Assembly (NCBI GenBank): GCA_036378155.1
Contig: DASUXA010000040.1
Location: forward strand, 25,800-89,799
Source: Micromonosporaceae bacterium
GTDB taxonomy: Bacteria > Actinomycetota > Actinomycetes > Mycobacteriales > Micromonosporaceae
Length of the DNA: 64,000 nt
Reading direction: 5' to 3'
Notes under the pieces: model-generated
What the model was told of the DNA's origin: nothing
Seen by the model: only the letters and a program-made list of their open reading frames with translations
Database searches by the model: none
Shown: positions 41,493-63,993 of the stretch, piece after piece
Numbering within the stretch: position 1 is the first letter of the stretch
Layout: every line of letters begins with the position of its first letter
Position numbers and translations under genes: made by a program

Positions 41493-42734
41493 ATGGCAGG
41501 AACCACAGGTGACCGCCGGGTCGTGATCGTGGGCGGCGGATACACCGGAATGATGTGCGCGATCCGGCTGGCGCGCCGTACCCGCCGGCACGGCGTCGAG
41601 GTCGTCCTGGTCAACCCGTCCGACCGGTTCACCGAGCGGCTGCGCATGCACCAGATCGCAACCGGGCAGACGCTGTCCGACCGCCGGATCCCGGCGCTGC
41701 TCGAGGGTACCGGCGTCCAGTTCGTCCAGGGTCGGGCGAGCCGCATCGACCCGGATCAGCGCGACGTGTGGGTGGACACCGACCGTGGTCCGAGGGTGCT
41801 GCGGTACCACACGCTGGTGTACGCGATCGGCAGCGTCGCCGACAGCCGCACCGTGCCCGGGGTCGAGACGCACGCGTACACACTGGACGACCCGCACGCC
41901 GCGACCCGGCTGGCGAACCGGCTGGCGGAACTGGACGGCGGCACGGTCGCGGTGTGCGGCGGCGGGCTGACCGGGGTCGAGTCGGCCGCCGAGATCGCCG
42001 ACAGCCACCCACGGGTGCGGGTGCTGCTGCTGACCCGCGACGAACCCGGCTCCATGATGGGCGACCGGGCACGCGGGTACCTGCGCCGGTCGCTGGCCCG
42101 GCTGGGCGTCGAGGTGCGCGCCGGGGTCGAGGTCGTCAAGGTGCTGCCCGGCGCGCCCCAGCCGACCGACGGTCAACCGGTCGTGCTCGAGCTCGCCGAC
42201 GGCGAATCGGTACCGGTCGACGCCTGCCTGTGGACCACCGGTTTCGTGGCGTCGCCGCTGGCCGAGCGGTCGGGTCTGGCAGTGGACCCGCGCGGTCGCG
42301 TGGTGGTCGACGAGACGCTGGCGTCGGTGTCGCACCCGTCGGTGTACGCGATCGGCGACGCGGCGGCGGTGCGGCAGCCGTGGGGCGAGATCCACGGCAC
42401 CTGCCAGAGCGGCATCCCGATGGCGATCCACGCCGCCGACACCATCGCCCGCCGGCTGCGGGACCGTCCGGCGAAGCCGTTCCGGTTCGGGTACGTCCAC
42501 CAGCCGGTCAGCCTGGGTCGGCACGACGCGGTCATCCAGTTCACCCGACCCGACGACTCGCCGCGCCGGTGGTACCTGACCGGACGCGCGGCGGTCGCCT
42601 ACAAGGAGGCGGTCAGCAGCAGCCCGCCCTGGGCGTACCGGCTGTCCGCGCGGGTCACCGTGCCCGCCGCGTTCGTCGCGCTGCGCGGCGGTCGCGCCAC
42701 CCGGCGACCGGTCAGCGCCGCCGCAGGCCGGTGA
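41493..42734 (+). CDS. FAD-dependent pyridine nucleotide-disulfide oxidoreductase (NDH-2-like)
   Basis: ATG 41493 is preceded by GAGGAGG. Dinucleotide folds VVIVGGGYTGMM and VAVCGGGLTGVE, and a C-terminal AIGDAA. Confidence 0.85.
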   Translation: MAGTTGDRRVVIVGGGYTGMMCAIRLARRTRRHGVEVVLVNPSDRFTERLRMHQIATGQTLSDRRIPALLEGTGVQFVQGRASRIDPDQRDVWVDTDRGPRVLRYHTLVYAIGSVADSRTVPGVETHAYTLDDPHAATRLANRLAELDGGTVAVCGGGLTGVESAAEIADSHPRVRVLLLTRDEPGSMMGDRARGYLRRSLARLGVEVRAGVEVVKVLPGAPQPTDGQPVVLELADGESVPVDACLWTTGFVASPLAERSGLAVDPRGRVVVDETLASVSHPSVYAIGDAAAVRQPWGEIHGTCQSGIPMAIHAADTIARRLRDRPAKPFRFGYVHQPVSLGRHDAVIQFTRPDDSPRRWYLTGRAAVAYKEAVSSSPPWAYRLSARVTVPAAFVALRGGRATRRPVSAAAGR

Positions 42735-43587
42735 GCTTGTCCGGATTGTTGATCAGGTGGATGGCGTGGATCACGCCATCCACCACGTACAACGTCGCCG
42801 CGGCGGCGGGCTGGTCGGCGGAGTACATGACGATGGCCGGCCCGCCGTTGACGTCGGTGATCTCGAAGCTCGGCTGCTCCGGCATGCGCCCGGCGAAGGT
42901 GACCAGCGCGCGGGCGACGAGGTCCGGACCGTAGATCGGCTTGCGCGGCGCGGGCGCCAGACCGCCGCCGTCGCTGACCATGACCACGTCGGGCGCCAGT
43001 ACCCGCATCAGCCCCGCCAGGTCGCCGCCCGAGGCAGCCGCCAGGAACTGCTGGGTGACGGCGATGCGGGTCGCCCGGTCGGTGTCGTACCGCAGGCGAC
43101 GCTGCTCGACGTGCTCGCGGGCGCGGCGCGCGGTCTGACGTACCGACTCCTCGCTGCGACCGACGATGTCGGCGATTTCCGCGTACGAGTACGCGAACGC
43201 CTCGCGCAGCACGAACACCGCCCGTTCCAGGGGCGACAACGACTCCAGTACCAGCAGCATCGCGGTCGACACCGTGTCCGCCATGGTCACGTCCTCGGCG
43301 ACGTCGGGGCTGGTCAGCATCGGCTCCGGCAGCCACGACCCGACGTACGCCTCGCGGCGCGCCTGCGCGCTGCGCAACCGGTCGATCGCCAGCCGGGTGA
43401 CGACCCGGACCAGGTACGCCGCCGGATCGTCGATGGTCGAGCGGTCCGCGCCGGCCCAGCGCAGCCACGCGTCCTGGACCACGTCCTCGGCGTCGCCGAC
43501 CCGACCGAGCACCCGGTACGCCACCCCGTACAGCCGACCCCGGTGCTCCTCGAACACCCGCGTCGCCTCGGCCTCGTCGATGGTCAC
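42712..43587 (-). CDS. sigJ: ECF sigma factor, SigJ-type, with SnoaL-like C-terminal extension
   Basis: Blocks RLYGVAYRVLGRVGDAEDVVQDAWLRW and REAYVGSWLPEP. About 120 aa form an extra C-terminal domain. Confidence 0.9.
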   Translation of the reverse strand: MTIDEAEATRVFEEHRGRLYGVAYRVLGRVGDAEDVVQDAWLRWAGADRSTIDDPAAYLVRVVTRLAIDRLRSAQARREAYVGSWLPEPMLTSPDVAEDVTMADTVSTAMLLVLESLSPLERAVFVLREAFAYSYAEIADIVGRSEESVRQTARRAREHVEQRRLRYDTDRATRIAVTQQFLAAASGGDLAGLMRVLAPDVVMVSDGGGLAPAPRKPIYGPDLVARALVTFAGRMPEQPSFEITDVNGGPAIVMYSADQPAAAATLYVVDGVIHAIHLINNPDKLTGLRRR

Positions 43588-43641
43588 GCCGTCGCCTCCC
43601 GTCGCCCGGACTCCACTCTAGGGCCGGCGTACGGTGAGCCG

Positions 43642-45015
43642 ATGGACGATCTCGGTTCGCTGCTGCGCAAGGCCGCCGACGAGGCGGCACGGTACCGGGC
43701 GTCGCTGCCCGACGCCCCGGTCACCGCCGCGCTCGACCTGGACGCCGCGCGCCGCGCCTTCGACGGTCCGCTGCCCGACGCGCCCACCGCCCCGGACAAG
43801 GTGCTGGACGACCTGCTCAGGGCCGCCGAGGGCGGCCTGACCGGGTCGGCGGGACCGCGCTTCTTCGGGTTCGTCATCGGCGGGGCGCTGCCGGTCGCGA
43901 CCGCCGCCGACGTGCTCGCCGCCGGCTGGGACCAGTGCGCGTACAACGCGACGCTGGCACCCGCGGCGATCGCCGCCGAGCAGGTCGCCGGGCAGTGGCT
44001 GAAGGACCTGCTGGGCATCCCGCAGTCCGCGTCGGTCGGGTTCGTCACCGGGGCGCAGGCGGCGAACACGGTCGGGCTCGCCGCCGCCCGGCACCATGTG
44101 CTCGCCGAGGCTGGTTGGGACGTGGAACGCCGGGGAATGTCCGGCGCGCCTCGGCTGCGCGTGGTGGCGGGCGCGGAGCGCCACGCCACGATCGACCGGT
44201 CGCTGCGGCTGCTCGGGCTGGGCTCGGACGTGGTCGAGGAGGTACGCGCCGACGCCAACGGCGCGATGGACGTCGATCACCTGCGCGAGGTGCTCGCGCG
44301 CGGACCGGGCGGCCCGACGATCGTGTGCCTGCAGGCCGGCAACGTGAACACCGGCGCGTGCGACAACCTGCGTGCCGCGTGCGAGATCGTCCACCGGTAC
44401 GGCGGCTGGGCGCACGTCGACGGGGCGTTCGGGTTGTGGGCCGCCGCCAGCCCGGACACCAGGCATCTGGTCGACGGAGTGGAACTGGCCGATTCGTGGG
44501 GCTGCGACGGGCACAAGTGGCTGAACGTGCCGTACGACTCGGCGTTCGCGTTCTGTTCGCGTCCCGAGGTGCACGCGGCGGCACTGTCGTACACCGCCTC
44601 CTACCTGGTCGGATCGGGGACGGTACCGAGCGGCGGGGACTACACGCCGGAGTCGTCGCGCCGGGCGCGCGGGTTCGCGGTCTGGGCGGCGCTGCGGCAC
44701 CTGGGTCGCGACGGGGTCGCCGATCTGGTCGACCGGTGCTGCCGACTGGCTCGGCGGTTCGCGGACCGGTTGGCGGCGGCGGGCGTCGAGGTGGTCAACG
44801 ACGTGGTACTCAACCAGGTGCTGGTCAGCTTCGGCGACGACGCCCGCACCGACCGCGTCGTCGAGGCGATCCAGCGCGACGGTACCTGCTGGATGGGCGG
44901 TACCACGTGGCGCGGCAGGCGACTGATGCGCATCTCGGTGTCGAACTACTCGACGACCGAGGACGACGTCGACCGTTCGGTCGCCGCCATCGTGAGGCTG
45001 GCGGGACGCGACTGA
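43642..45015 (+). CDS. pyridoxal-phosphate-dependent decarboxylase (fold type I)
   Basis: In-frame ATG 43642. Blocks GFVTGAQAANTVGL, HVDGAFG and the Lys motif DGHKWLNVPYD. Confidence 0.85.
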   Translation: MDDLGSLLRKAADEAARYRASLPDAPVTAALDLDAARRAFDGPLPDAPTAPDKVLDDLLRAAEGGLTGSAGPRFFGFVIGGALPVATAADVLAAGWDQCAYNATLAPAAIAAEQVAGQWLKDLLGIPQSASVGFVTGAQAANTVGLAAARHHVLAEAGWDVERRGMSGAPRLRVVAGAERHATIDRSLRLLGLGSDVVEEVRADANGAMDVDHLREVLARGPGGPTIVCLQAGNVNTGACDNLRAACEIVHRYGGWAHVDGAFGLWAAASPDTRHLVDGVELADSWGCDGHKWLNVPYDSAFAFCSRPEVHAAALSYTASYLVGSGTVPSGGDYTPESSRRARGFAVWAALRHLGRDGVADLVDRCCRLARRFADRLAAAGVEVVNDVVLNQVLVSFGDDARTDRVVEAIQRDGTCWMGGTTWRGRRLMRISVSNYSTTEDDVDRSVAAIVRLAGRD

Positions 45016-48824: not shown

Positions 48825-49187
48825 CTAGCCGCGCTCCTGCGGGATCTCCTCGATCTGGGACACCCCGCTGTCGGCGTGTGCCCCGTACCGCCGCCACACC
48901 TCGTGCAGCAGGATGCGTCCGTCCGGCAGGATCTCCGGCGTGCTGTGGCATTCACCGGAGATGATCCGACCGTCCTCGAGAACCATGCAGTAGGCGAAGT
49001 CGATCGAGCCGTCCGGCGCGCATCGCCCGGCGAGGGTGCCGCGCCGCGCGTGCCCGCCGGTGAACTCGCCCCACAGCAGGTCGCCGTCCTGGTAGTAGTG
49101 CGCGACACGGGTGTGTTCGCCGGTGCCGTCCTCGACCGGGCGGAACCGCCGCCCGTGATAGTCGATCGACGCGGCGGGTGCGGACAT
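48825..49187 (-). CDS. small conserved hypothetical protein (120 aa)
   Basis: ATG 49187 is preceded by AAGGAG. The sequence is non-repetitive (IDYHGRRFRPVEDGTGEHTRVAHYYQDGDLLWGEF). Confidence 0.65.
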   Translation of the reverse strand: MSAPAASIDYHGRRFRPVEDGTGEHTRVAHYYQDGDLLWGEFTGGHARRGTLAGRCAPDGSIDFAYCMVLEDGRIISGECHSTPEILPDGRILLHEVWRRYGAHADSGVSQIEEIPQERG

Positions 49188-49347
49188 GGCAGCTCCTTGC
49201 GACGTGTCCGTGCCGATCGCGGCGGAACAGCCGCGTCGGGCAGACCCTGGGATGCCGACGGCGCGGCGTACTGACGACGGGCCGTGATCGTAGCAGGCGC
49301 ATCGACGTCCCCACATGCCGCCGCCGGCGTGCGTACACTCGGCGACC

Positions 49348-50010
49348 ATGGTTGTCGCCGCGCCCACAGTGGACGTTCTTCGTGCCGCCGTGACCACCTT
49401 CGTCGGCGACGGCGGACCGGATCGTTCCTGGCTGCGGCTTTGTCGGCAGACCGCCCCGGCGATCGACCTGTCCACGGCGCAGCACCGCCGCGCGGTCCTG
49501 GTCTGGCTGAACGCCTGGGGCTGCCGGCTGCGCTACCCCCGCCCCGGTGAGGAGGACCTGTTCGACGTCGGTCTCGCCGGGTGGTGGAACCGCTGGGGCG
49601 GCGTGCTGCCGCCGGTGGACACGAGGCTGCCGGCGTTGCCGGAGGACGCGCTGCCCCTGCTCGGCGCGGCGTTCTCGGATCTCGCCCGGGTACGGGTGGC
49701 GCCCGGGGCGCGGGGTCGCTCGCTCGGCTCGACGGCAGCGAGCAAACTGCTGTACGCGTTGCGTCCCGCCGCGCTGCTGCCGTGGGACGAGGCGATCGCC
49801 CGTACCCTGCACGGCAGCCGCGACGGCGACGCCTACGTCGCGCACCTGCGGCTGGGACGCTCCTGGGCGCGGCGGCTGCTCGCCGAGACCGGGCTGGACG
49901 AGGCGGCGCTCGCCGACGCGCTCGGGCAGCCGGGACGGTCGCTGGCGAAGATGCTCGACGACTACTGCTACCTGGTGTGTACCCGGGGCGTCGACCCGGC
50001 GCCCCGGTGA
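49348..50010 (+). CDS. hypothetical protein
   Basis: 220 aa from ATG 49348. It has high GC3 and balanced composition. The overlapping minus-strand ORFs are Arg-rich shadows. Confidence 0.6.
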   Translation: MVVAAPTVDVLRAAVTTFVGDGGPDRSWLRLCRQTAPAIDLSTAQHRRAVLVWLNAWGCRLRYPRPGEEDLFDVGLAGWWNRWGGVLPPVDTRLPALPEDALPLLGAAFSDLARVRVAPGARGRSLGSTAASKLLYALRPAALLPWDEAIARTLHGSRDGDAYVAHLRLGRSWARRLLAETGLDEAALADALGQPGRSLAKMLDDYCYLVCTRGVDPAPR

Positions 50011-50026: not shown

Positions 50027-50058
50027 GGCTGGGTCGGCCCGTACGGGCCGACCCAGCC
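50027..50058. terminator. perfect 32-nt palindrome between convergent genes
   Basis: GGCTGGGTCGGCCCGT/ACGGGCCGACCCAGCC. Every position pairs. It sits in the 53-nt spacer at the 3' end of the ADH gene. Confidence 0.65.
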
Positions 50059-50063
50059 GACCC

Positions 50064-51155
50064 TCAGTCGAACAGCACGACGCTGCGCAGGACGTCGCCC
50101 CGGCGCATCTTCTCGAACGCCGCCTCGACGTCGGCGACACCGATCCGCTCGCTGACGAACCGGTCGAGCGGCAACCTGCCCTGCAGGTGCAGGTCCACCA
50201 GCGTCGGCATGTCGCGCGACGGCAGGCAGTCGCCGTACCAGCAGGTCTTGTACGTGCCGCCGTGCAGGAACATGTCCAGCAGCGGCATCTCCATCCGCAT
50301 CGACGAGTCCGGCCGGGCGACCAGGACGAACGTGCCACCGACCGCGCGCGCGTAGAACGCCTGCCGCCAGGTCTCCGGGAACCCGGCGGCGTCGATGGTC
50401 ACGTCGGCGCCGAGCCCGTCGGTGAAGGTCCGGATCGTAGCGACCACATCGGTGTCCCGGCTGGCGTCGACGACGTGGGTGGCGCCGAGTTCCTCGGCGA
50501 CCGGCAACTTCCGCGCGTCGATGTCCACTGCGATGATCGTGGTCGCGCCCGCCAGTCGCGCGCCGGCGACCGCCGCGCTGCCCACCCCGCCGCAGCCGAT
50601 GACCGCGACGGTGTCCCCGGGACGGACGTTGCCCGCGCGCATCGCCGCGCCGAGCCCCGACATCACGCCACAGCCGAGCAGGCAGGCAACGGCGGGGTCG
50701 ATCGCCTTGTCCACCGGCGTGCACTGTCCGGCGTGGACCAGGGTGAGCGGGGTGAAGGCGCCGATACCCAGCGCCGGACCCAGCGGCTCCCCGGTGGTCA
50801 GCGTCATCGGCCGGCTCGCGCCGAGTTCGTTCAGGCACGCCTCGGGCACCCCGCGCCGACAGGGTCGGCACCGCCCGCACACCGCCCGCCAGTTGAGGAT
50901 GACGAAATCGCCCGGCGCTACGTGCTGGACGCCGTCGCCCACCTGCTCGACGATCCCGGCCGCCTCGTGACCGAGCAGGTACGGGTACCCGGAGCCGATG
51001 ACGCCGTCGCGGTAGTGCAGGTCGGTGTGGCAGACCCCGCAGGCCAGTACCCGTACCGTGGCTTCACCCGGCCCGGGGTCCGGAACCACGATGTCGCGGG
51101 TCTGCACGGGCTGGCCCGGGCCGAGCGAAACCACGGCCTCGACTGTCTGCGCCAT
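50064..51155 (-). CDS. zinc-dependent alcohol dehydrogenase (class III / mycothiol-dependent formaldehyde dehydrogenase-like)
   Basis: Motifs [25 protein letters not shown], and a Rossmann GCGGVGS. Confidence 0.9.
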
Positions 51156-51225
51156 GTGCCATGTGTCCTTGTCTGTTCGGTATCTGTGGTGGTCTGTCCG
51201 GCTGGCGTGACGGCGGTCGGTCCGG

Positions 51226-52470
51226 TCAGTCCGCGAAGTCCACGGTGATCAGGTCGGCGTACCGCATCATCGTGTCGAAGGCGTCGTCCTTGGACGTCCC
51301 GGTGGTACCGAGGAACCCGAGGATGGTGTTGCCGTGCGGCGGGCGCTTGACGACGTCGCCCGGTCGCGCGGTGATCTTGAGAAGGAAGGTCCGGTCCGAC
51401 TCGCTGACCTCGGCGGGTACGTGCACCTTCGCGATCGTCCCCGCGTCGCAGATCAGGCACATCGACGTGGTGTGGGTGCCGGTGGGTTGGAAATGGCGGA
51501 CCCGGGGGCGTACCCCACGGGCGATGTCCACCACCGCGGCGATCGGGTCGTGGTCGGCGGTCAGCCGCGCGATCATGTCGAGCCCGCCGCCGCCGACCCG
51601 CGCGGCGATCTCCAGCAGGTGCGGCTTGCCGTCGTGGAAGCGCACCTCGGCGTGTCCCACGCTGCGCCGCAGCCCCTGCGCCCGCATCCCGGCGGCGACC
51701 ACCTCGTGCACCGCGGCGAGATCCTCCGGGCTCATCGACGTCGGTGCGTGGTGCACGTCGTCGTCGAAGGTGTCGCGCTCGACGGTGATCCGGTCCACGA
51801 CCGAGCCGAGGTACACCTCGTCGTCCCAGATGACGACCTCCATCAGGTACTCGGCGCCGTCCAGGAACGACTCCACCAGCAGTCCGCTCGGTCCGAGGTC
51901 GACACCGTCCGGCTCGGACCTCGCCCAGAACATGTCGCGGCTGCCCGCCTCCGCCTGGGCGTACCGTTCGGCCAGTTCCGCCGGGGATTCGACCTTGAAC
52001 ACGAAGTTGCTGCCGGCGCCGTGCGTCGGCTTGACGATCACCGGGTAGCCGAACTCCTCGGCCGCGGCGTTCGCCTCGGCGAGACTGTGGGTCAGCCGGT
52101 ACCGGGGCGAGCGAGCGCCCGCCCGCTCGTACGCCTGCCGCATCAGGTACTTGTTGCGGCAGTTGACCGCCGTTTCCACGCCGATGCCGGGCAGACCGAG
52201 AGCCTCGGCGACCGCCGCCACGGTGATCACCGACGACTCGGAGAAGGTCAGTACCCCGTCGAACGCCTCGACCTGGTGCCACTGCTTGGCGGTGGCGATG
52301 ATCTCGTCGATGTGCCGCGAGCCCGCCACCCGGTACCGTTCGGCGGGCCAGAAGTCCGGCTCGCCTTCGCCGTTGAGCACGTACAGCGTCGCGCCCAGAG
52401 CCTCCACCTGTTCATACCGGGACTTGTAGTACGACAGGTACTGACAGGTCTCGATGGCGAGCAGCTTCAC
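51226..52470 (-). CDS. ATP-grasp ligase (L-amino-acid-ligase-like)
   Basis: 414-aa ORF with [30 protein letters not shown] and [12 protein letters not shown]. Confidence 0.9.
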
Positions 52471-52512: not shown

Positions 52513-54075
52513 CTATCCGAACGTGGTGGGCAGCGGCGGCAACCGGAACATGACGACCTTGTCCGGGGGCGCGTCCTGCAGTTGTAGCCGCACCCCTTCG
52601 GCGGTCAGCGTGCCGGTCACGTCGACGAGGACCGGCGCGGCGTACCCGAGCAGGGTCTGCAGTTGGGCGAGCACGTCGGCGGCGGTACCGACCTCGATCG
52701 GGCTGTCCGCCAGCCGCTCGAGATGGGTCGCGACGGCGTCCGCCACCGCGCTCGGGCTGAACCGCTCGTCGTCGTAGTGCCGGCGCAGCCGGTCGGCGAG
52801 GCGGCGGGCGCGGTCGTGTCCGGTCGCGCTCACCGGCAGCACCGTACCGTCGGCGATCGGCAGTGCGGCGAGCGTCGTGGCCAGCCGGTTCCACGGTCGC
52901 ACCAACCGGGCGGCGACCACCGCCTGCAGGTCCGCCTCGGTGAAATTGGCCCGCTGGAATTCCGGCGCGGTCAGCGCCAGGTAGAACCGCGCCAGGTCGC
53001 GGGGCACCCGGTCGAGCAGGTCGGTCGCCGAGATCAGATGGTTGCGGCTGGTGGAGAACTTCGACCGGTCCAGCTCGTAGAACTCGTTGGTGAACGTCGC
53101 CGCCGGAGTGGCGTACCCCGCCGGGTGCGACAGCAGCATCGCCAGGTCGAGCATGCCCCAGTGGAAGACGTTGTCGTATCCGTGGAAGTAGACGATCGTC
53201 GGGCGGGTGTCGGCGAGCCACCAGGCGTCGGTACGGTCGCCGCCGACTCCCAGCTGCCGCGCCGACCACCAGGTGCTGTAGATGACCGCCGGCATCGCCT
53301 CCAGCCACGGGTACAACCGCTGCCCCGGCGTCTCGGGGAACGGCGCCGGCAGCCCCCAGTCGCCGGGCACGGTCACCGGTACGTCCGGCAGCGGACCGGC
53401 CATCAGCTCCGCGATCAGGTCGCGGGCGTGCGGACGCCACGTCGGCAGGTGCCGGTCGTAGTAGTCGGTCAGCTTCCCGCGCAGCCGCTCCAACGGCAGG
53501 ACCAGGATCTCCACCTCGCGGTACTCGACGTCGTCGGTGGGATCGAGGGTGTACCGCGCGTCGAGCAGCTCGTCGAAGTTGTTCGGGTGCCCGCACGCCT
53601 CGCAGGCGCCGCCCGCGCTGCCCGCGAGGCACGTCGGGCAGGTACCGGACACCATCGCGTCGTACATCCACACGCCGGCGCGCCGGGCGAACGGAAACCG
53701 GACGGTACGCAGCTCGAACACGCCCGCCGCGTGCTGGGCGGTGACGAAGTCGACAACGGTTCGCCGGTACGTGTCGTCGACCGGTGGCAGCCCCACCAAC
53801 GTGGTGCCCAGCGCGGTGAACGCCTGCTGGATCCGGGCGGTCGCGTCGCGTACCAGTTCCGACGGGGTCACCCCGAGCTTCGCCGCGCGGGTCGCGACGA
53901 ACGTCTGGCTGTCGTCGGTACAGGTGGTGTAGACGGCGAACCGGTCACGGGCACGCTGGTACCGGGCGTAGATGTCGGCGGCGAGGTACGGACCGGCGAG
54001 GTGCCCGACGTGCAGACCTCCGTTGGAGGTGGGCGTGGCCGGTACCACGATCACCGGCGCGTCGGGCAGGCTCAC
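52513..54075 (-). CDS. methionyl-tRNA-synthetase-like protein (hydrazine synthetase component)
   Basis: In-frame GTG 54075 overlaps the cupin stop (GTGA). It has the HIGH-like PTSNGGLHVGH, the zinc knuckle CPTC..CEACG and the KMSKS-like KFSTSR. The upstream 97 codons of the track ORF are off-frame shadow of the cupin gene. Confidence 0.9.
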   Translation of the reverse strand: MSLPDAPVIVVPATPTSNGGLHVGHLAGPYLAADIYARYQRARDRFAVYTTCTDDSQTFVATRAAKLGVTPSELVRDATARIQQAFTALGTTLVGLPPVDDTYRRTVVDFVTAQHAAGVFELRTVRFPFARRAGVWMYDAMVSGTCPTCLAGSAGGACEACGHPNNFDELLDARYTLDPTDDVEYREVEILVLPLERLRGKLTDYYDRHLPTWRPHARDLIAELMAGPLPDVPVTVPGDWGLPAPFPETPGQRLYPWLEAMPAVIYSTWWSARQLGVGGDRTDAWWLADTRPTIVYFHGYDNVFHWGMLDLAMLLSHPAGYATPAATFTNEFYELDRSKFSTSRNHLISATDLLDRVPRDLARFYLALTAPEFQRANFTEADLQAVVAARLVRPWNRLATTLAALPIADGTVLPVSATGHDRARRLADRLRRHYDDERFSPSAVADAVATHLERLADSPIEVGTAADVLAQLQTLLGYAAPVLVDVTGTLTAEGVRLQLQDAPPDKVVMFRLPPLPTTFG

Positions 54076-54437
54076 GACGCGGAGCCGTGACGCTCGACGA
54101 ACCGGTCGGCCATCTCCCGGTCCCACCACACCGCGTACATCTGGAACGGCTCGTCGCCCCGGTTGACGACCTGGTGCCGCTCGTGCGGCGGGAAGTGCAC
54201 GACGTCGCCCTCGACGAACGGCGTGGTCCCGGCGTCGGTGACCAGCTCGGCGCGCCCGGTCATGGCGATCCAGATCTCGTACTCGTGGTGACCGTGCGCG
54301 CCCGACTCCGCGCCCGGCGGCACCACGCACCAGGAGCCCTCGAACGGGGCGTTGAGCACGTCCCACGGCATCAGCCGTTGGGCGCGCAACCCGTTGTCGG
54401 GTTTGAGACCGTCGCGGTCGAGCTTGCGAATCTCCAT
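54072..54437 (-). CDS. stand-alone cupin protein (hydrazine synthetase component)
   Basis: ATG 54437, 2 nt after the upstream stop. Cupin motif 1 is GAESGAHGHHEYEIWIAMTG and motif 2 is GDVVHFPPHERHQVVN. Confidence 0.85.
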   Translation of the reverse strand: MEIRKLDRDGLKPDNGLRAQRLMPWDVLNAPFEGSWCVVPPGAESGAHGHHEYEIWIAMTGRAELVTDAGTTPFVEGDVVHFPPHERHQVVNRGDEPFQMYAVWWDREMADRFVERHGSAS

Positions 54438-54439
54438 GC

Positions 54440-55747
54440 TCAGTCGTCCTCTCCCTGGATGGACACGGCGTCGACGCGCGCCGTCGTCGTGGCGGCGCGG
54501 TGGGCGAGCAGGTCGTCCACCATCTCGCCGGCGCGTACCGCGAGCACGCTGATCAGCGAGTCCGCGATGCCGTGACTGTCCTCGTTGACACCCTGCAGGT
54601 AGCAGCCGGCGGTGACGGAGGCCGGCGTGATCATGCGGTAGTGGCGGTCCACCGCGATGTCGCGCACCCCCACCGCCTCGGCGGTCTGCCGGATCAGCCA
54701 CGGCTTGTCCTGCTCGAAACCCGTGCCGAGGAGCACCATGTCGGCGCGTACCTCGCTGGTCGTGCCGCGCATCCGGTCGCGCACCGTCAGCACCACGTCG
54801 TCGCCGTCCATCCGGGTGGCGAGCACATCGGTCAGGGTGTGCATGACGATCCGCTCGCTGCCGGTCAGCCGGTCCTGGTACATCTGCCGGTACAGCGCGT
54901 CGAGCATGCCCGGCGCGAGCCCGGCGTAGTTGGTGCGGTGCATCTCCGCCAGCACCTGGGCGCGGACCTGCGGCGAGCCGGCGTAGAACTGGTCGACGAA
55001 GGACGGGTAGTACAGCTCGTTGGTGAACGCGCTGCTCTCGTAGCCGCGCAGCCCGGCGGATCTCATGATCATCCGGCATTCGGCGGCGGGGAACCGCTGG
55101 TACACCGTCCACAGCATCTCGGCGGCGCTCTGCGCGCCGCCGACGACCACGAGCCGGCGTACCGCCGCCGGGTCGATCAACTCCACGCGGCTGGTGAACT
55201 CGGTGCTGTGCACGACCCGCTCGCCGGGCAGGTTCCGGAACTCGGCGGGTACGGCGGGGGTGCGACCGATGCCGATGACCACGTCCCGGCAGCGCACGAC
55301 CTCGCCGGTGTCGAACCGGACCCGCCAGCCGTCCACGGTACCGTCGTCGCGCGACGAGACGGGCTCGACCGCGGTGACGGTTCGTCCGTACTCCACCTGC
55401 ACCCGCTCCAGCGACTTGGCGACCCACTGCAGGTACGCGGACACCTCGAGGCGGAACGGGGTGGCGGAGCCGAGGTTGATGAACTCGTCGAGCCGGCGGA
55501 CCGAGTGCAGGTAGTTGATGAACGAGTACTTACTGCGCGGATTGCGCAGCGTCGCGAGGTCCTTCAGGAAGCTGACCTGGCTCTGCGTCCACGGCAACAG
55601 CATGCCGCGCTGCCAGGCGATGTCGTCGTGCCGTTCCACTACGAGGGTCTCGTCGGCGAGCTGCGGAGCCATCTCCTCGGCCGCCACGGCGAAGGCGAGG
55701 TTGGCGGGACCGGCGCCTACCGCGACCACTGACATCTGTCTTTCCAT
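54440..55747 (-). CDS. flavin-dependent lysine/ornithine N-hydroxylase (SidA/IucD/PvdA family)
   Basis: Blocks VGAGPANL, FLKDLATLRNPRSKYSF, VVGGAQSAAE and LGTGF. Confidence 0.9.
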   Translation of the reverse strand: MERQMSVVAVGAGPANLAFAVAAEEMAPQLADETLVVERHDDIAWQRGMLLPWTQSQVSFLKDLATLRNPRSKYSFINYLHSVRRLDEFINLGSATPFRLEVSAYLQWVAKSLERVQVEYGRTVTAVEPVSSRDDGTVDGWRVRFDTGEVVRCRDVVIGIGRTPAVPAEFRNLPGERVVHSTEFTSRVELIDPAAVRRLVVVGGAQSAAEMLWTVYQRFPAAECRMIMRSAGLRGYESSAFTNELYYPSFVDQFYAGSPQVRAQVLAEMHRTNYAGLAPGMLDALYRQMYQDRLTGSERIVMHTLTDVLATRMDGDDVVLTVRDRMRGTTSEVRADMVLLGTGFEQDKPWLIRQTAEAVGVRDIAVDRHYRMITPASVTAGCYLQGVNEDSHGIADSLISVLAVRAGEMVDDLLAHRAATTTARVDAVSIQGEDD

Positions 55748-55756
55748 CGTGCGCCC

Positions 55757-56881
55757 TCATCCCCACGCTGTGTCGGCGCCCTGGACCGGGCAGGTCAGCA
55801 CCGGCGGGCTTGCGAAAAACGACGGCGACTGCCCGGACATCGCGGCGCCCAACGCGGTCGCGGCGAGCCGGCTCGACGCCAGGACACTCTTCGCGGCGCC
55901 CCCCGCACCACCGGTGAAGCTGTACACCCCGGGCATGCCCGCGACCGCGCGCAGCCGCAGCCCGCCGTCGGCGGCGAAACACTCCGTCGCGGCGGTCACC
56001 CGTCGCGGCGGCGGCAGCGGTCCGGCGAGCCCGAGGACGGTACGGGCGACATCGGACACCCGCTCGACGCAGACCGGGTCGGCAGCGATGTCGCCCGGCG
56101 CGACACCCCACGCCGACGTGGCGACCCCGAGCAGCACCGCGCCGTCGCCGTAGCTGCGCCCGTACAGCGTGGACAGGTCGTCGACGAGACAGCCGAGGTC
56201 GGGGCGTGCCAGCGGGTACACCCCGTACTGGATGCGCCGGGTGCGCAGCGGCACAGGCAGCAGCCTGCCGGTCCACGCGCCGGCGGCGACGACCACCGCG
56301 TCGTGCCGCCGGACGGTACCGCCGACCAGCGTCACCGCCGGTCCCGCGTCCGACGCCGGTACCGCCTGCACCGCCGCGACCGGTTCGTCGCGCACCCGGG
56401 CACCCAGGTCGGCGGCGCGCGCGGCGGCGTACCGGCGCATCGCGTCCGGATCGACGTACCCGGCGTACCGCTCGACCACGGCGACCGTGCCGTCCGGCCG
56501 GGGTCCTAGGTCGAGGGTCCGGGCGAGCTCGGCGGCGGGTACCACCCGCGCCGAACCGGCGACCGCCGCGTCCAGCACCGCGAGCTGGGGCTGGGGGTCG
56601 GCGTCCGGGCGCAGGAAGTAGCTGGAGCGCGTCTCGCGGTACCCGCAGGCGCGCGCCAGCATCGGGTCGCCGCGCAGCTCGGCGAGGCTGGCGGCAGCCA
56701 ACCGGCACTGGTCCAGGTCGGTCTCGAAGCCCCGGACGAACCCTCCGGACGCCCCGGTGGCGTCCATGCCCGACGTCGCCGGGTCCCGGTACAGGTCGAC
56801 GTGCGCGCCCTGTTCGGCGAGGCGCAGCGCGAGCATCGAGCCGGCGACGCCGCCGCCGACGACGGCTATCCGGGTGCCCAT
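55757..56881 (-). CDS. FAD-dependent oxidoreductase (D-amino-acid-oxidase family)
   Basis: Started at ATG 56881 (MGTRIAVVGGGVAGSMLALRLAEQG). GTG 56935 is an alternative start. Confidence 0.85.
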   Translation of the reverse strand: MGTRIAVVGGGVAGSMLALRLAEQGAHVDLYRDPATSGMDATGASGGFVRGFETDLDQCRLAAASLAELRGDPMLARACGYRETRSSYFLRPDADPQPQLAVLDAAVAGSARVVPAAELARTLDLGPRPDGTVAVVERYAGYVDPDAMRRYAAARAADLGARVRDEPVAAVQAVPASDAGPAVTLVGGTVRRHDAVVVAAGAWTGRLLPVPLRTRRIQYGVYPLARPDLGCLVDDLSTLYGRSYGDGAVLLGVATSAWGVAPGDIAADPVCVERVSDVARTVLGLAGPLPPPRRVTAATECFAADGGLRLRAVAGMPGVYSFTGGAGGAAKSVLASSRLAATALGAAMSGQSPSFFASPPVLTCPVQGADTAWG

Positions 56882-57169: not shown

Positions 57170-58426
57170 TCAGGCTTCGGCACCCGCCTGCGCCGGCTCG
57201 TCGGCGACGGTGGGCGCGGTCGGCACGGCGGTCGGAGCGGGCTGGACCGCGACGAGCACGACGGCGGCGGCGGTCAACGCCGCGGACGCGACGATCGTCG
57301 GGGTGTAGCTGTGCTCGATGTCCGCGAGCATCGCCCCCAGCTGGCTGGTGACCGCCACCGAGAGCATGTGCACCGCCCACAGCACCCCGAGCGCGGTGCC
57401 GCGCACCTCCGGCGGCAGAACGCGGCTCACCCACATGGTCGTGGCGACCACGGTGGCGAGGTAGCTCGCGCCGAACACCGCGCCGAACGCGATGACGGTC
57501 GCCGGGTTCGCGACGAACAGCAGCATGACCATCGCGGCGGCGCGCATCGCGTACGCCCCGGCCAACGAGGCGCGGATCCACCCCAGGTCGCACAGCCGTC
57601 CCACGACCAGCGACCCGATGATCTCCAGGGCCCCCAGCACCGCCACCGCCGACGCGCCGGTCGAGCTGGAAATGCCGTGGTCGTGCAGATAAGGGAAAAG
57701 ATGTACGTCGATGAATGCCATCGTGGTTCCGCACCCGATGAACGCCAGCACCAGAGCGCGGATCTGCGGGTGGCGGAACGTGGTCGCGGTCGCCTGCCAC
57801 AGCGACACCCGTGCCGGGCGCTCGGCGGGGGCCTGCCGGGTGGACAGTCGTACCAGCACCAGGGACAGCGGCAGCAGCACGACCAGGAAGATCAGCCCGA
57901 GGACGAACAGCACCTGGTTCCACGACGTGGTGTGGTCCAGGTGCGCCCACAGCGGAACGAGCACCATGAAGCCCACTGCCGCGCCGTTGGTCAGCACCGC
58001 GTACACCAGTCCGCTGTTGCGACCGCGGAACAGTTGATCGGCGAGCACTCCCAGCGGTACGTAGGAGAGCATGGTCACCGCGACCGCGCCGACCACCCCG
58101 TAGCTGACAATGAAGATCCACAGGTGGCTGGTGGTGGCGCTGAGCAGCAGCACCAGCCCGTTGAGCGCGGTGCCGACGGCGAGGACCGGGATCGCGCCGA
58201 TCCGGTCGGCGAGGTGCCCGACCACGGACGAGGACACGGCGGTGAACACCGCGAACAGCGTGGTCGCGATCGCCAGGCTGCCCCGGCTGACCTCGAAGCC
58301 GCCCGCGATGTCCAGGAAGAACACCTGGACGGTGCTCTTCAGGGACGACCCGGCGAGCGAGATCAGAAAGCTCGCCGTCGCCGCGAAGATCGCGAACGCG
58401 GTGCCTACCTTGGCGGTCCTGGTCAT
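57170..58426 (-). CDS. MFS transporter (12 TM)
   Basis: Started at ATG 58426 (MTRTAKVGTAFAIFAATASF). It has hydrophobic repeats throughout. Confidence 0.85.
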   Translation of the reverse strand: MTRTAKVGTAFAIFAATASFLISLAGSSLKSTVQVFFLDIAGGFEVSRGSLAIATTLFAVFTAVSSSVVGHLADRIGAIPVLAVGTALNGLVLLLSATTSHLWIFIVSYGVVGAVAVTMLSYVPLGVLADQLFRGRNSGLVYAVLTNGAAVGFMVLVPLWAHLDHTTSWNQVLFVLGLIFLVVLLPLSLVLVRLSTRQAPAERPARVSLWQATATTFRHPQIRALVLAFIGCGTTMAFIDVHLFPYLHDHGISSSTGASAVAVLGALEIIGSLVVGRLCDLGWIRASLAGAYAMRAAAMVMLLFVANPATVIAFGAVFGASYLATVVATTMWVSRVLPPEVRGTALGVLWAVHMLSVAVTSQLGAMLADIEHSYTPTIVASAALTAAAVVLVAVQPAPTAVPTAPTVADEPAQAGAEA

Positions 58427-58773
58427 TGAGCAGCCTCTGCTTCGGACGTACGGAGCGGTGTCGAGCCTTGCGTCGAGCGCGCGTCGACCACCGCCGTGGT
58501 GATCGCCGACCGGGTCATCCTGGCATGCGCGCGCATCGACGACCAGCACTGGTGTCGCGGCGCTGGCGGCGGTACGTTCTCCGGTTGCCGTGAGCGACGG
58601 CGATCCCGACGACGCTGCTCCCGCCGTGCTCGGGTACCGGCGCCGTCACCTTCAACCCGAAGCCGGCGAGCAGCACGTCGTAACCAGGCGACCGTGAAGG
58701 TCAGCTACGCCGGGCAGCCCTGACCCGACGACCGACCTGCGGCAACCCGGCACCTACGACGCGGACTGTCACA

Positions 58774-61809: not shown

Positions 61810-61999
61810 TACGGCGGGCGCGGCATAGCCGAACCGACGCGGGCCATCGGGTACCCGGTGCCGAGGCGCGCCAAACGTGAGATGGGTACGCGTCGGATGC
61901 GTCAGCCGGGGCGCAGGGGGTAAACGCCGATCGACGGACCGGGCAGACGACGCCGTGCCGCGGTAGTGTGCCGGGACCAGGCGAGACGCTGGATGGCTG

Positions 62000-62734
62000 A
62001 TGAACGAGATCCACTGTCGGGTCGAGACCACGCTTCCGGTCGCGGTGGTGCGACTGGAGGGGGTACTCGGACTGGACAGCGCGTCCACGGTTCGTACGGC
62101 GCTGCTCAAGCGCCTCGCCGAACACCCGGACGCGTTGATCGTCGACCTGTCCCGACTGACGGTCGCCGACGAGTCCGCGTTGTCGGTGTTCGTCGCCGTG
62201 GCGCGACAGGCGGCGATCTGGCCCGGCATCGCGATGGCGTTGTGCGGGGTACCGGAACGGTTCGCCGCGATCGCGTCGCGTCTGGTACCGGTCTGCGACG
62301 ACCCTGGGCAGGCGCGCGACGTCCTGCGCCGCGTCCCGGTCCCGCTGCAGCGGGACCGGCGGCTGCTGCCGGTGACCGGGTCGGCGCGGCGCGCCCGCGA
62401 CCTGGCGACCGAGGCATGTCTGGACTGGGGGCTGTCCGACCTGGTGATCCCGAGTTGCGTGGTGGCCGGTGAACTGGTCGCCAACGCCGTCCAGCACGCC
62501 GGCACGCCGATGACGCTCAGTTTCCGCCGACTGCCCCGGTACCTGCACATCGCGGTGCGCGACGGCTCGGACCGTCCGGCGCTGCGCTGCGAGACGCACC
62601 CACTGGCACTGGGCGGCCGGGGGCTGATGATCGTCGACGCGACGTCGCGATGCTGGGGGTGCTCGCCGGCGACCGGCGGCAAGGTGGTCTGGGCGACGCT
62701 GGACGTCGGCGATCCGTGGCACGGCGACCGGTAA
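62000..62734 (+). CDS. STAS (anti-sigma antagonist-like) / HATPase (RsbW-type anti-sigma kinase-like) fusion protein
   Basis: The N-terminal VAVVRLEGVLGLDSASTVRTALL...IVDLSRLTVADESALSVFV fits STAS. The C-terminal VAGELVANAVQHA...GGRGLMIVDA fits HATPase_c_2. Confidence 0.8.
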   Translation: MNEIHCRVETTLPVAVVRLEGVLGLDSASTVRTALLKRLAEHPDALIVDLSRLTVADESALSVFVAVARQAAIWPGIAMALCGVPERFAAIASRLVPVCDDPGQARDVLRRVPVPLQRDRRLLPVTGSARRARDLATEACLDWGLSDLVIPSCVVAGELVANAVQHAGTPMTLSFRRLPRYLHIAVRDGSDRPALRCETHPLALGGRGLMIVDATSRCWGCSPATGGKVVWATLDVGDPWHGDR

Positions 62735-62805: not shown

Positions 62806-63993
62806 CTACGTGTCCACCGGACGCAGCACGGGACCCCGCGCGTCGGCGGACAGCAGGCGCCACACTCCGGCGCGGCGCAGCAGGTCGGCGACCACGGGTC
62901 GGGTGCGTACCACCGCGAACCGCGCGCCCGCGTGGCGGGCGGTGCGGCACCCGGCGACCAGCGCCGCGATGCCGGCCGCGTCGATCAGCGGTACCTGGGC
63001 GAAGTCGGCGCGCACCCAGCGGGGTCGCTCGGCCATCGCGGTACGGCACAGCGAGGCGCGCAGGTCGGCGGCGTTGTCGCGGTCGACCTCGCCGTGCACG
63101 GTCACGGTCACCCCGCCCGGCTCGCGGCCGATCTCGATCCGGGTGCCCAGCTCGTCGACGACCGGGTCGCCGAGCCCCGGCCAAACCGGGTCGATGTCGC
63201 TGGTCATCGCGGCTCTCAGCCACGCGAGCGCCTGGGACAGCAGCCGCGACACGTGCATCTGCGAGATGCCGATCTCGGCGGCGATCTGCGACTGTGTCAT
63301 GTTGCCGTAGAACCGCATGGTCATGATGCGCTGTTCGCGTGCCGGTAGCCGGGGCAGCAGGGTCGCGAGGGTGACCTGGTCGTCCATCCGCTCCAACGCC
63401 GGGTCCCGCCCGCCGAGCATGGCGCCCAGGTCGGCGGCGTCCTCCTCGTGCGAGACCGGGGCGTCCAGCGACACCGGCTGGTACGCCCGAGCCAGGTCCA
63501 GCCCTTCGAGCACCTCCTCGGCGTCCAGCCGGAGGTGGGCGGCGAGGTCGTCGACCGTGGGCGAGCGGCCCAACTGGTGCGTCAGGTGCTCGTTGGCGCG
63601 CGTCATCTCCAGCCGCAGTTCCTGCAGCCGGCGCGGTACCCGGACCCGCCAGCCCCGGTCGCGGAAGTGCTTCTTCAACTCGCCGCGGATGGTGGGCGCG
63701 GCGTAGTGGCTGAACGGACCGCGGGTCTGGTCGTACCCGTCGACCGCCTTGATCAGCCCGACGGTGGCGACCTGGACGAGGTCTTCGAACGCCTCGCCGC
63801 GACCCTGGTAGTGGCGCGCCATCCGCACCGCGTACGGCAGCCCGGCCTCGATCACCTGCTCGCGCAGCCGGGCCCGGCACACGTTCCCGTCGGGCAGCGT
63901 GACGATCCGGGCGAACAACGCGGCCACGGCATCGTCGAGGTCGTTGGCGACATTTGCGGGACTCATGGGGTTCGGCGGTGACGCCCCGGTCAC
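62806..63993 (-). CDS. SigB/SigF-type sigma-70 family factor with C-terminal STAS-like domain
   Basis: Region 2 is FEDLVQVATVGLIKAVDGYD and region 4 is RIMTMRFYGNMTQSQIAAEIGISQMHVSRLL. About 125 extra C-terminal residues (VTVHGEVDRDNAADL...ADFAQVPLIDAAGIAAL...VVADLLRRAGV) follow. Confidence 0.85.
   Translation of the reverse strand: MTGASPPNPMSPANVANDLDDAVAALFARIVTLPDGNVCRARLREQVIEAGLPYAVRMARHYQGRGEAFEDLVQVATVGLIKAVDGYDQTRGPFSHYAAPTIRGELKKHFRDRGWRVRVPRRLQELRLEMTRANEHLTHQLGRSPTVDDLAAHLRLDAEEVLEGLDLARAYQPVSLDAPVSHEEDAADLGAMLGGRDPALERMDDQVTLATLLPRLPAREQRIMTMRFYGNMTQSQIAAEIGISQMHVSRLLSQALAWLRAAMTSDIDPVWPGLGDPVVDELGTRIEIGREPGGVTVTVHGEVDRDNAADLRASLCRTAMAERPRWVRADFAQVPLIDAAGIAALVAGCRTARHAGARFAVVRTRPVVADLLRRAGVWRLLSADARGPVLRPVDT

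Follow-up and report, generated by a model that had tools for sequence, protein, structure and literature searches.

What does an ATP-grasp ligase do when its gene stands directly behind a set of genes that appear to build nitrogen-nitrogen (N-N) bonds? The question is raised by a 64,000-nucleotide stretch of DNA from a Micromonosporaceae bacterium (assembly GCA_036378155.1, contig DASUXA010000040.1, positions 25,800 to 89,799), which we call the window and number from its first letter. There, a gene for an ATP-grasp enzyme and another for a zinc alcohol dehydrogenase (ADH) follow a putative hydrazine-forming cassette, and a first-pass annotation had suggested that both enzymes serve that cassette. 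On gene content, the window, probably from a Micromonospora, holds a self-contained orphan biosynthetic cluster of ~9.7 kb (48.8-58.5 kb), whose conserved core is made up of six genes encoding a DAO-type oxidase, a lysine-type N-hydroxylase, a cupin, an enzyme resembling methionyl-tRNA synthetase (MetRS-like), the ATP-grasp ligase and an avidin-fold protein. Taken as a whole, the explanation that we favour, with moderate confidence, is that of an orphan cluster whose ligase would form a hydrazide.

By family, the ATP-grasp protein is of the L-amino-acid-ligase (LAL) type, and its ligase activity is predicted from there. Pfam recognizes ATP-grasp_4 (1.9e-17), LAL_C2 (3.6e-10) and ATPgrasp_N (1e-9), and the closest solved relatives are BL00235 (3VOT, 1.4e-31, residues 19-390) and BacD (6e-16), while all NCBIfam matches fall below threshold. 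The initial identification of an LAL-type gene starting 42 nt after the MetRS-like stop thus agrees with the coordinates, the quoted peptide motifs and Pfam. The possibility of a LysX or amino-group carrier protein ligase was ruled out by the LAL_C2 domain, the LAL best matches and the lack of a LysW-like carrier. The enzyme has the same ATPgrasp_N, ATP-grasp_4 and LAL_C2 set as BL00235, BacD/YwfE and RizA, its NCRNK and E-x-x-AR-x-GG motifs align with theirs, and the acyl phosphate chemistry is presumed to be the same. The similarity is nonetheless distant, and unlike these ligases the window-type enzyme is always found within a hydrazine cassette, where it probably uses a hydrazine as nucleophile in place of an alpha-amine.

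This linkage is what ties the ligase to N-N chemistry. We compared the window with 16 related loci, 15 of them from a scan of one genome per GTDB species and the last from Microbispora rosea. Orthologues of the ligase that are ~70% identical occur in Micromonospora, Saccharothrix, Streptomyces, Actinoallomurus, Microbispora, Actinomadura, Streptacidiphilus, Kitasatospora and others, and in all 16 loci, which span at least six actinomycete genera, the gene lies downstream of the N-monooxygenase, cupin and MetRS-like genes on the same strand. A gene of ~1.3 kb is interposed before it in two of these loci; in one (L012) it encodes an MFS-type (major facilitator superfamily) membrane protein. Over the window and the 16 loci, the ligase has the highest mean pairwise identity in the module (71.9%, with 36% invariant columns), ahead of the cupin (68%), the avidin-like protein (67%), the N-hydroxylase (64%), the MetRS-like protein (59%) and the DAO oxidase (50%). 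Because synteny holds throughout and the ligase is the best conserved member of the module, we assign it to the hydrazine system, and we consider its membership in that pathway very probable. It is a single copy, as tblastn found no second ATP-grasp in the 64-kb window.

The related loci come in two layouts. Type A comprises the window, four other Micromonospora, Peterkaempfera griseoplana and Streptomyces cinereospinus, and contains the DAO, N-monooxygenase, cupin, MetRS-like, ATP-grasp and ADH genes together with an MFS gene, which lies upstream in Micromonospora and downstream in the two Streptomycetaceae. In Peterkaempfera the seven-gene unit is bounded by housekeeping genes, and in Micromonospora its flanks vary between strains. 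Type B comprises several Streptomyces, Saccharothrix, Microbispora, Dactylosporangium and one Pseudonocardiaceae metagenome-assembled genome. In neighbour-joining trees of the ATP-grasp alone or of four concatenated module proteins, type A forms one clade that cuts across Micromonosporaceae and Streptomycetaceae, which argues for a coherent cluster lineage moving between lineages.

Genes of the window, whose G+C content is ~72%, were called from third-position GC (GC3) and open reading frame (ORF) structure. The cluster and its immediate surroundings read as follows, from its upstream end:

57170-58549, reverse strand: MFS transporter (Pfam MFS_1, 6.4e-34).
55757-56881, reverse strand: DAO-family FAD-dependent oxidoreductase, 374 aa from the ATG at 56881 (Pfam DAO, 2.5e-27).
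54440-55747, reverse strand: flavin N-monooxygenase of the Lys/Orn type (Pfam Lys_Orn_oxgnase, PF13434, 1.9e-87).
54072-54437, reverse strand: stand-alone cupin (Pfam Cupin_2, 1.9e-15).
52513-54075, reverse strand: MetRS-like protein, 520 aa, GTG start (Pfam tRNA-synt_1g, PF09334, 1e-58).
51226-52470, reverse strand: ATP-grasp ligase, 414 aa, GTG start (ATP-grasp_4, LAL_C2 and ATPgrasp_N).
50064-51155, reverse strand: zinc ADH, 363 aa (Pfam ADH_N and ADH_zinc_N; TIGR03451).
50027-50058, no strand: perfect 16+16 palindrome, flanked by the ADH gene and the convergent ORF 49315-50010.
49315-50010, forward strand: 231-aa ORF convergent on the ADH gene (GC3 0.89; negative in Pfam and NCBIfam).
48828-49187, reverse strand: avidin-fold gene, 119 aa (conserved DNA, orthologues and an AlphaFold2 model).

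The public gene call on the identical contig gives the same gene models, except for the MFS gene, whose start is uncertain (418 aa in the public call). From the DAO gene to the ADH gene the spacings are 9 nt, 2 nt, -4 nt, 42 nt and 70 nt: the N-monooxygenase starts 9 nt past the DAO stop, the cupin ATG lies 2 nt past the N-monooxygenase stop, and the GTG start of the MetRS-like gene overlaps the cupin stop as GTGA. The MFS gene stands 290 nt upstream of the DAO gene. AGGAGA is found 6 nt upstream of the ATP-grasp GTG and AAGGA 10 nt before the ADH ATG, which confirms the earlier description of an ADH gene placed 70 nt after the ligase stop with an AAGGA of its own. The hairpins reported as missing between these genes are indeed missing, since an inverted-repeat scan was empty in both intergenic gaps. 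The cluster was also said to involve no polyketide synthase (PKS), nonribosomal peptide synthetase (NRPS) or acyl carrier protein (ACP), and domain scans bear this out, with none among the cluster genes or the other window genes scanned. An Rfam scan of 48.0-58.8 kb returned matches at chance level only, and a consensus promoter and terminator scan gave no useful result in this high-GC DNA.

The genes preceding the ligase have, judged by their sequences, the parts of a split cupin/MetRS-like cassette: an adjoining Lys/Orn-type N-monooxygenase, a metal-binding cupin, a core like that of PyrN-C and an FAD oxidase. The N-monooxygenase, syntenic in all 16 related loci, would by analogy make N6-hydroxylysine, the N-N donor. 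The MetRS-like protein matches the PyrN-C crystal structures 9VQ4 and 9VR2 at 1e-39 and carries HVGH and KFSTS; within a hydrazine synthetase, PyrN-C is the half that acts as aminoacyl-hydroxylamine synthetase, and by family the window protein is predicted to be an O-aminoacyl-hydroxylamine synthetase. The cupin has visible HxH...E and H motifs and matches 4RD7 (6e-57), plu4264 from Photorhabdus (4MV2, 2e-27) and the zinc cupin RHS1 (5UQP, 6.5e-11); by analogy it would be the component of the split synthetase that catalyzes the N-N-forming rearrangement. The DAO gene, which heads the tight run and is present in 13 of the 16 related loci, may encode the oxidase that splits the conjugate of lysine and an N-N-linked amino acid into an alpha-hydrazino acid and 2-aminoadipate semialdehyde, a role modelled on Tri27, AzsM and FuzF (PMC13149037, PMC10445470).

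The entry 4RD7 was deposited merely as 'Cupin 2 conserved barrel domain protein'. It seems that the cupin of this cassette has already been crystallized and solved, though under no functional label.

Which amino acid enters the pathway can be approached through the eight pocket residues of the MetRS-like domain that have been defined in published work, where Spb40 and AzsN (Gly) have TPDQWMNH, ThzN (Thr) has SADQWYGH and PyrN (Glu) has SFVQALNR. Mapped through an HMMER alignment to PyrN-C, with residue spacings and the HLGH and FDN landmarks consistent, the corresponding residues in the window are A13, T14, D54, Q57, W257, A260, N302 and W306 (numbered from the GTG at 54075), giving the motif ATDQWANW. 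It differs from the glycine code at positions 1, 2, 6 and 8, and it is identical in the window and all 16 loci, in type A as in type B, despite 46-80% overall identity; of the neighbouring pocket positions, two vary, each in a single locus. The activated amino acid is probably not glycine, and it should differ from all of Gly, Thr and Glu, the amino acids of the three codes compared. Since both layouts share the motif, the same hydrazino acid should feed the same ligase in each. Hydrazinoacetate, which the first-pass annotation had put forward as a hydrazino acid for the ligase, finds no support in this pocket. ATDQWANW had no match in a full-text literature search, which did not take in the Matsuda 2024 survey of 401 hydrazine synthetases.

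The MetRS-like pocket also retains residues typical of MetRS (the TDD...Q and YPWLEAMP segments) that are lost in PyrN.

The pathway that we propose would begin with the formation of N6-hydroxylysine by the N-hydroxylase. The MetRS-like enzyme would then adenylate an amino acid, probably not glycine, and esterify it onto the N-OH group; the cupin would rearrange the ester to create the N-N bond, and the DAO oxidase would free the alpha-hydrazino acid along with 2-aminoadipate semialdehyde. The ATP-grasp enzyme, which by analogy is probably a hydrazide or amide bond former, would activate a carboxylate as an acyl phosphate and couple it to the hydrazino acid, with the terminal hydrazine nitrogen as the likeliest acceptor, to yield a small hydrazide resembling an aza-dipeptide. 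This product is probably exported by the MFS protein and probably bound, either itself or as a reactive intermediate, by the avidin-fold protein, and the ADH would more likely handle a reactive aldehyde or protect the cell than build the scaffold. The first four steps draw on the established enzymology of homologues; the ligation draws on synteny and on the precedent of fuscazine.

In the fuscazine (Fuz) pathway of Microbispora fusca, FuzD, FuzE, FuzF and FuzG make hydrazino-arginine, FuzC couples alanine onto its hydrazine nitrogen to give a hydrazide, and FuzH adds pipecolate derived from the lysine by-product (PMC13149037, Nat Chem 2026). Literature searches for ATP-grasp enzymes in connection with hydrazines, hydrazides or hydrazino compounds turned up no more than the papers on fuscazine, azaserine and thrazarine and a preprint on a family of heme hydrazine-forming enzymes, and fuscazine is the sole published precedent that we found for a hydrazine cassette working with ATP-grasp ligases. 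The two systems have in common a split four-gene cassette, ATP-grasp ligases without NRPS or PKS, and an actinomycete host. In fuscazine it is one of the two ligases that turns the hydrazino acid into a hydrazide, and the likeness here is drawn from gene content and published descriptions. The window cluster differs in having one ligase where Fuz has two, though type B relatives do have a second, and in adding genes for an MscR-type ADH, an MFS protein and an avidin-fold protein. Pfam families for an iron/2-oxoglutarate (Fe/2OG) arginine hydroxylase or a tRNA deacylase were found neither among the cluster and scanned window genes nor in L016 and L019-L021.

The statement that no known pathway matches this gene set stands in so far as the set is an orphan variant, but fuscazine supplies a precedent for its logic. 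Likewise, the idea that the ligase condenses the hydrazino acid gains from its tie to the cassette and from FuzC, even if not with hydrazinoacetate. We regard the cluster as an orphan variant of a recently described kind. It is a good and compact target for genome mining, though no categorical surprise, because more than 1,200 hydrazine synthetases and many uncharacterized clusters are already recognized (PMC13149037).

The s56-p1, triacsin and azaserine pathways (Spb38-40, Tri26-28, AzsL-N) follow the same N-N logic, with a lysine N6-hydroxylase, a cupin, a MetRS-like enzyme and a DAO-type oxidase. There, cupin and MetRS are mostly fused in one enzyme that bears the glycine code, whereas in the window they are separate proteins and the pocket reads ATDQWANW. 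These pathways also load the hydrazino acid onto carrier proteins through AMP-binding enzymes, whereas the window cluster has no carrier protein. Negamycin, a hydrazide of methylhydrazinoacetate, was considered as a model and ruled out: its N-N bond is made by a nitrite-dependent route in a different, split cluster.

Several observations weigh against our explanation. The ligase gene directly follows the MetRS-like gene, which is the position of FuzH, the pipecolate ligase, and not that of FuzC. In the azaserine cluster the ATP-grasp AzsJ and the MFS protein AzsK lie beside the hydrazinoacetate genes, and AzsJ was judged dispensable by the authors (PMC10445470). The substrate of the N-hydroxylase could be lysine, but also ornithine or a diamine. 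Finally, it is spacing alone that suggests that the genes from DAO to ADH are co-transcribed.

N-N bonded natural products are rare and pharmacologically useful, and a single example of a hydrazine-accepting ATP-grasp ligase has been published. The window offers a compact seven- or eight-gene system without NRPS or PKS that should express easily and whose core is conserved across many actinomycete genera. For biocatalysis it might provide a second ligase that forms hydrazides, and beyond that a new hydrazino-acid building block and a small protein able to bind a reactive hydrazine. The neighbours, too, are sorted by the comparison, with the ligase and the avidin-fold protein in the core and the ADH only loosely attached, which sharpens the design of knockout and expression experiments.

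How loosely the ADH is attached bears on the alternative that fares best, namely that it is a dedicated pathway enzyme which oxidizes or reduces aminoadipate semialdehyde or an aldehyde intermediate. Thiol-dependent class III ADHs oxidize aldehydes via hemithioacetals. The closest solved structures to the window enzyme are class III ADHs (4DL9, 7e-57), as first proposed, and both zinc sites are apparently present when inspected by eye. The assignment can be refined, since the protein scores 569.3 bits against TIGR03451, the S-(hydroxymethyl)mycothiol dehydrogenase equivalog (cut-off 512.9), and is 64-69% identical to mycobacterial and Nocardia enzymes given that name by their sources. By sequence family it is an MscR-type equivalog, predicted to be a mycothiol-dependent formaldehyde dehydrogenase, and passing the equivalog cut-off of a detoxification enzyme speaks against a biosynthetic role. 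In favour of such a role, the ADH is in the same transcription unit as judged by spacing, and the junction between ligase and ADH is kept in Micromonospora and Peterkaempfera (in S. cinereospinus the avidin-like gene lies between them). Yet the ADH accompanies the cassette in only six of the 16 related loci, all of type A, and is absent from the ten others, which retain the core. Of the two genes that the first-pass annotation had tied to the cassette, synteny thus upholds the ligase and not the ADH.

The homologues of the ADH fall into two tiers, a lower one of 64-69% identity that represents the general actinomycete MscR population and an upper one of 73-90% identity in Micromonospora, S. 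cinereospinus, Peterkaempfera, Kitasatospora, Umezawaea, Actinosynnema and Saccharothrix. While the enzyme clears the MscR cut-off, it belongs to this upper sub-clade, which is always paired with a particular MFS protein, and in type A it sits inside the hydrazine cluster. Three upper-tier ADHs from outside type A loci, those of Saccharothrix hoggarensis, Kitasatospora sp. RB6PN24 and Actinosynnema mirum (L022-L024; 73-77% identical), adjoin an MFS gene whose product is 54-62% identical to that of the window, with no hydrazine genes nearby. In S. hoggarensis the type B cluster lies on another contig than the ADH-MFS pair. The ADH tree tracks taxonomy and not cluster membership, and cluster-linked and stand-alone ADHs are equally similar (73-77%). 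The MFS protein, present in all type A loci, is related to monocarboxylate and oxalate/formate transporters, with weak NCBIfam matches to L-lactate and oxalate/formate MFS families.

As the genomic comparison indicates, the ADH and MFS genes are a separable two-gene module recruited by the type A lineage, and a scaffold-building role for the ADH is therefore unlikely. The enzyme more likely handles a reactive aldehyde such as the semialdehyde by-product, protects against hydrazine-aldehyde chemistry, or acts with the MFS protein in detoxification and export. We consider a dedicated pathway function doubtful, and the tailoring role first envisaged for the ADH is not borne out: it is an MscR equivalog, found at a minority of the loci, and has relatives that sit beside an MFS gene without hydrazine genes.

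A slightly less probable alternative concerns the substrate of the ligase. Following the example of FuzH, lysine-derived 2-aminoadipate semialdehyde could cyclize and undergo reduction to pipecolate, or remain a related acid, and then be ligated to the hydrazino acid, with the ADH perhaps supplying the reduction, so that both halves of the cleaved lysine conjugate end in one molecule. FuzH, the ATP-grasp enzyme that comes next after the MetRS-like one in the naming of the Fuz genes, is a ligase specific for pipecolate, which originates from the cassette's own by-product (PMC13149037). The same logic would account for a ligase that stays with the cassette at ~70% identity whatever surrounds it, and the type A cluster has a single ligase and no other source of a building block. 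The likeness to FuzH is nevertheless one of gene position only. The ADH is an MscR equivalog, of a family for which imine reduction is not known, and it is absent from type B loci, which retain the same ligase. We regard this variant as unlikely.

Less likely still is a cryptic protection step, in which the ligase would transiently aminoacylate the terminal nitrogen and the acyl group would later be removed, leaving an end product other than a hydrazide peptide. In its favour, peptidases of the M1 and M20 types accompany the same ligase in type B loci. Protection of the distal nitrogen has been described for hydrazinoacetate pathways (AzsS, Tri31; PMC10445470), and its succinylation or acetylation in the triacsin and azaserine pathways offers a parallel. 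By its title, a 2025 paper also reports that the formycin and pyrazofurin pathways include a cryptic N-acylation. The type A cluster, however, has neither a peptidase or amidase nor downstream enzymes that could use the deprotected hydrazine.

That the ligase, or the ligase and the ADH together, are unrelated neighbours of the hydrazine cassette is scarcely credible: nothing speaks for it in the case of the ATP-grasp, whose linkage in every locus across several families refutes it, and for the ADH the occurrence of the same ADH-MFS pair elsewhere without hydrazine genes is offset by a type A clade that includes ADH-bearing loci of two families.

Hydrazide formation by a core ligase thus remains the explanation that we prefer, and the core extends further than it first seemed. 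The run of genes had been taken to end at a perfect 32-nt palindrome. The palindrome is real: it starts 5 nt past the ADH stop and folds as RNA at -41.8 kcal/mol (z = -4.56 against shuffles), and it has no T tract, hence its omission from the output of the consensus terminator scan. It is a probable bidirectional terminator of the DAO-to-ADH transcript. A conserved avidin-fold gene nevertheless lies beyond it, past an inserted ORF, so that the palindrome would end the transcript and not the gene set. The four other Micromonospora loci lack this ORF, 49315-50010, and their avidin-like gene follows the ADH within ~110 nt. The ORF looks like a strain-specific insertion separating the two genes and is probably not part of the system.

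The avidin-like gene came to light through a comparison of the window with type A loci, which revealed a conserved DNA segment of ~335 nt (window position 48841-49196) that directly follows the ADH gene in other Micromonospora and lies between ATP-grasp and ADH in S. cinereospinus. A non-coding element was considered and dropped in favour of a small gene, given its CAAGGAG ribosome-binding site and a substitution pattern that is codon-like by eye; the DNA is 75-86% conserved beside the cluster in L001-L004 and L009. Of the 16 related loci, 15 have an orthologue of the protein (59-87% identity), and in type B the gene is found directly after the ATP-grasp or one gene further. The protein collection searched does not contain the exact 119-aa sequence; the best match there is 88% identical.

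A local Pfam scan of the 119-aa protein gave no match, and all of its database homologues are precomputed as members of PF26421 (Avidin_like). An AlphaFold2 model built with 39 homologues has eight strands and a pLDDT of 91.2, and its top Foldseek matches are zebavidin, avidin and xenavidin (TM-scores of 0.63-0.68 at 9-16% identity). According to this model, the protein is an avidin-like eight-stranded beta-barrel, and it may have a binding, immunity or carrier role.

Type B loci surround the same core with other genes. Their additional products include an M1 peptidase, a glyoxalase-fold protein, a KASIII-like enzyme, a 612-aa protein without family match and a carrier protein, together with a DDAH-like protein, a solute-binding protein, a Na/H exchanger, and an M20 peptidase or MFS protein. 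A second, distant ATP-grasp (26-31% identity) is also present. The larger type B cluster was seen in Microbispora rosea, Streptomyces sp. NPDC059788 and Saccharothrix hoggarensis (L016, L019 and L021) and is apparently uncharacterized. One may go further and suppose that the six-gene core defines an undescribed hydrazide family widespread in actinomycetes, with an unreported pocket specificity, a ligase that may join the lysine-derived by-product to the hydrazino acid, and an avidin-fold immunity or carrier factor that binds the reactive product. We offer this only as speculation, with a rather small chance of being right as a whole. Were it true, type A would be the minimal natural version, and type B would elaborate the same intermediate.

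Elsewhere in the window, a gene at 61967-62734 on the forward strand encodes a sigma-70 family protein with a C-terminal STAS fusion, and its divergent neighbour at 62806-63993 on the reverse strand encodes STAS and anti-sigma-type HATPase_c_2 domains. By their domains, the two would form a compact partner-switching set with an unusual fusion. A 752-aa ORF at 42712-45015 on the forward strand has its pyridoxal phosphate (PLP)-decarboxylase domain confined to residues 333-688. Its first 300 codons overlap a gene for a sigma factor of the extracytoplasmic function (ECF) type at 42712-43617 on the reverse strand (GC3 0.93), and the decarboxylase probably starts well downstream of the mechanical ORF start.

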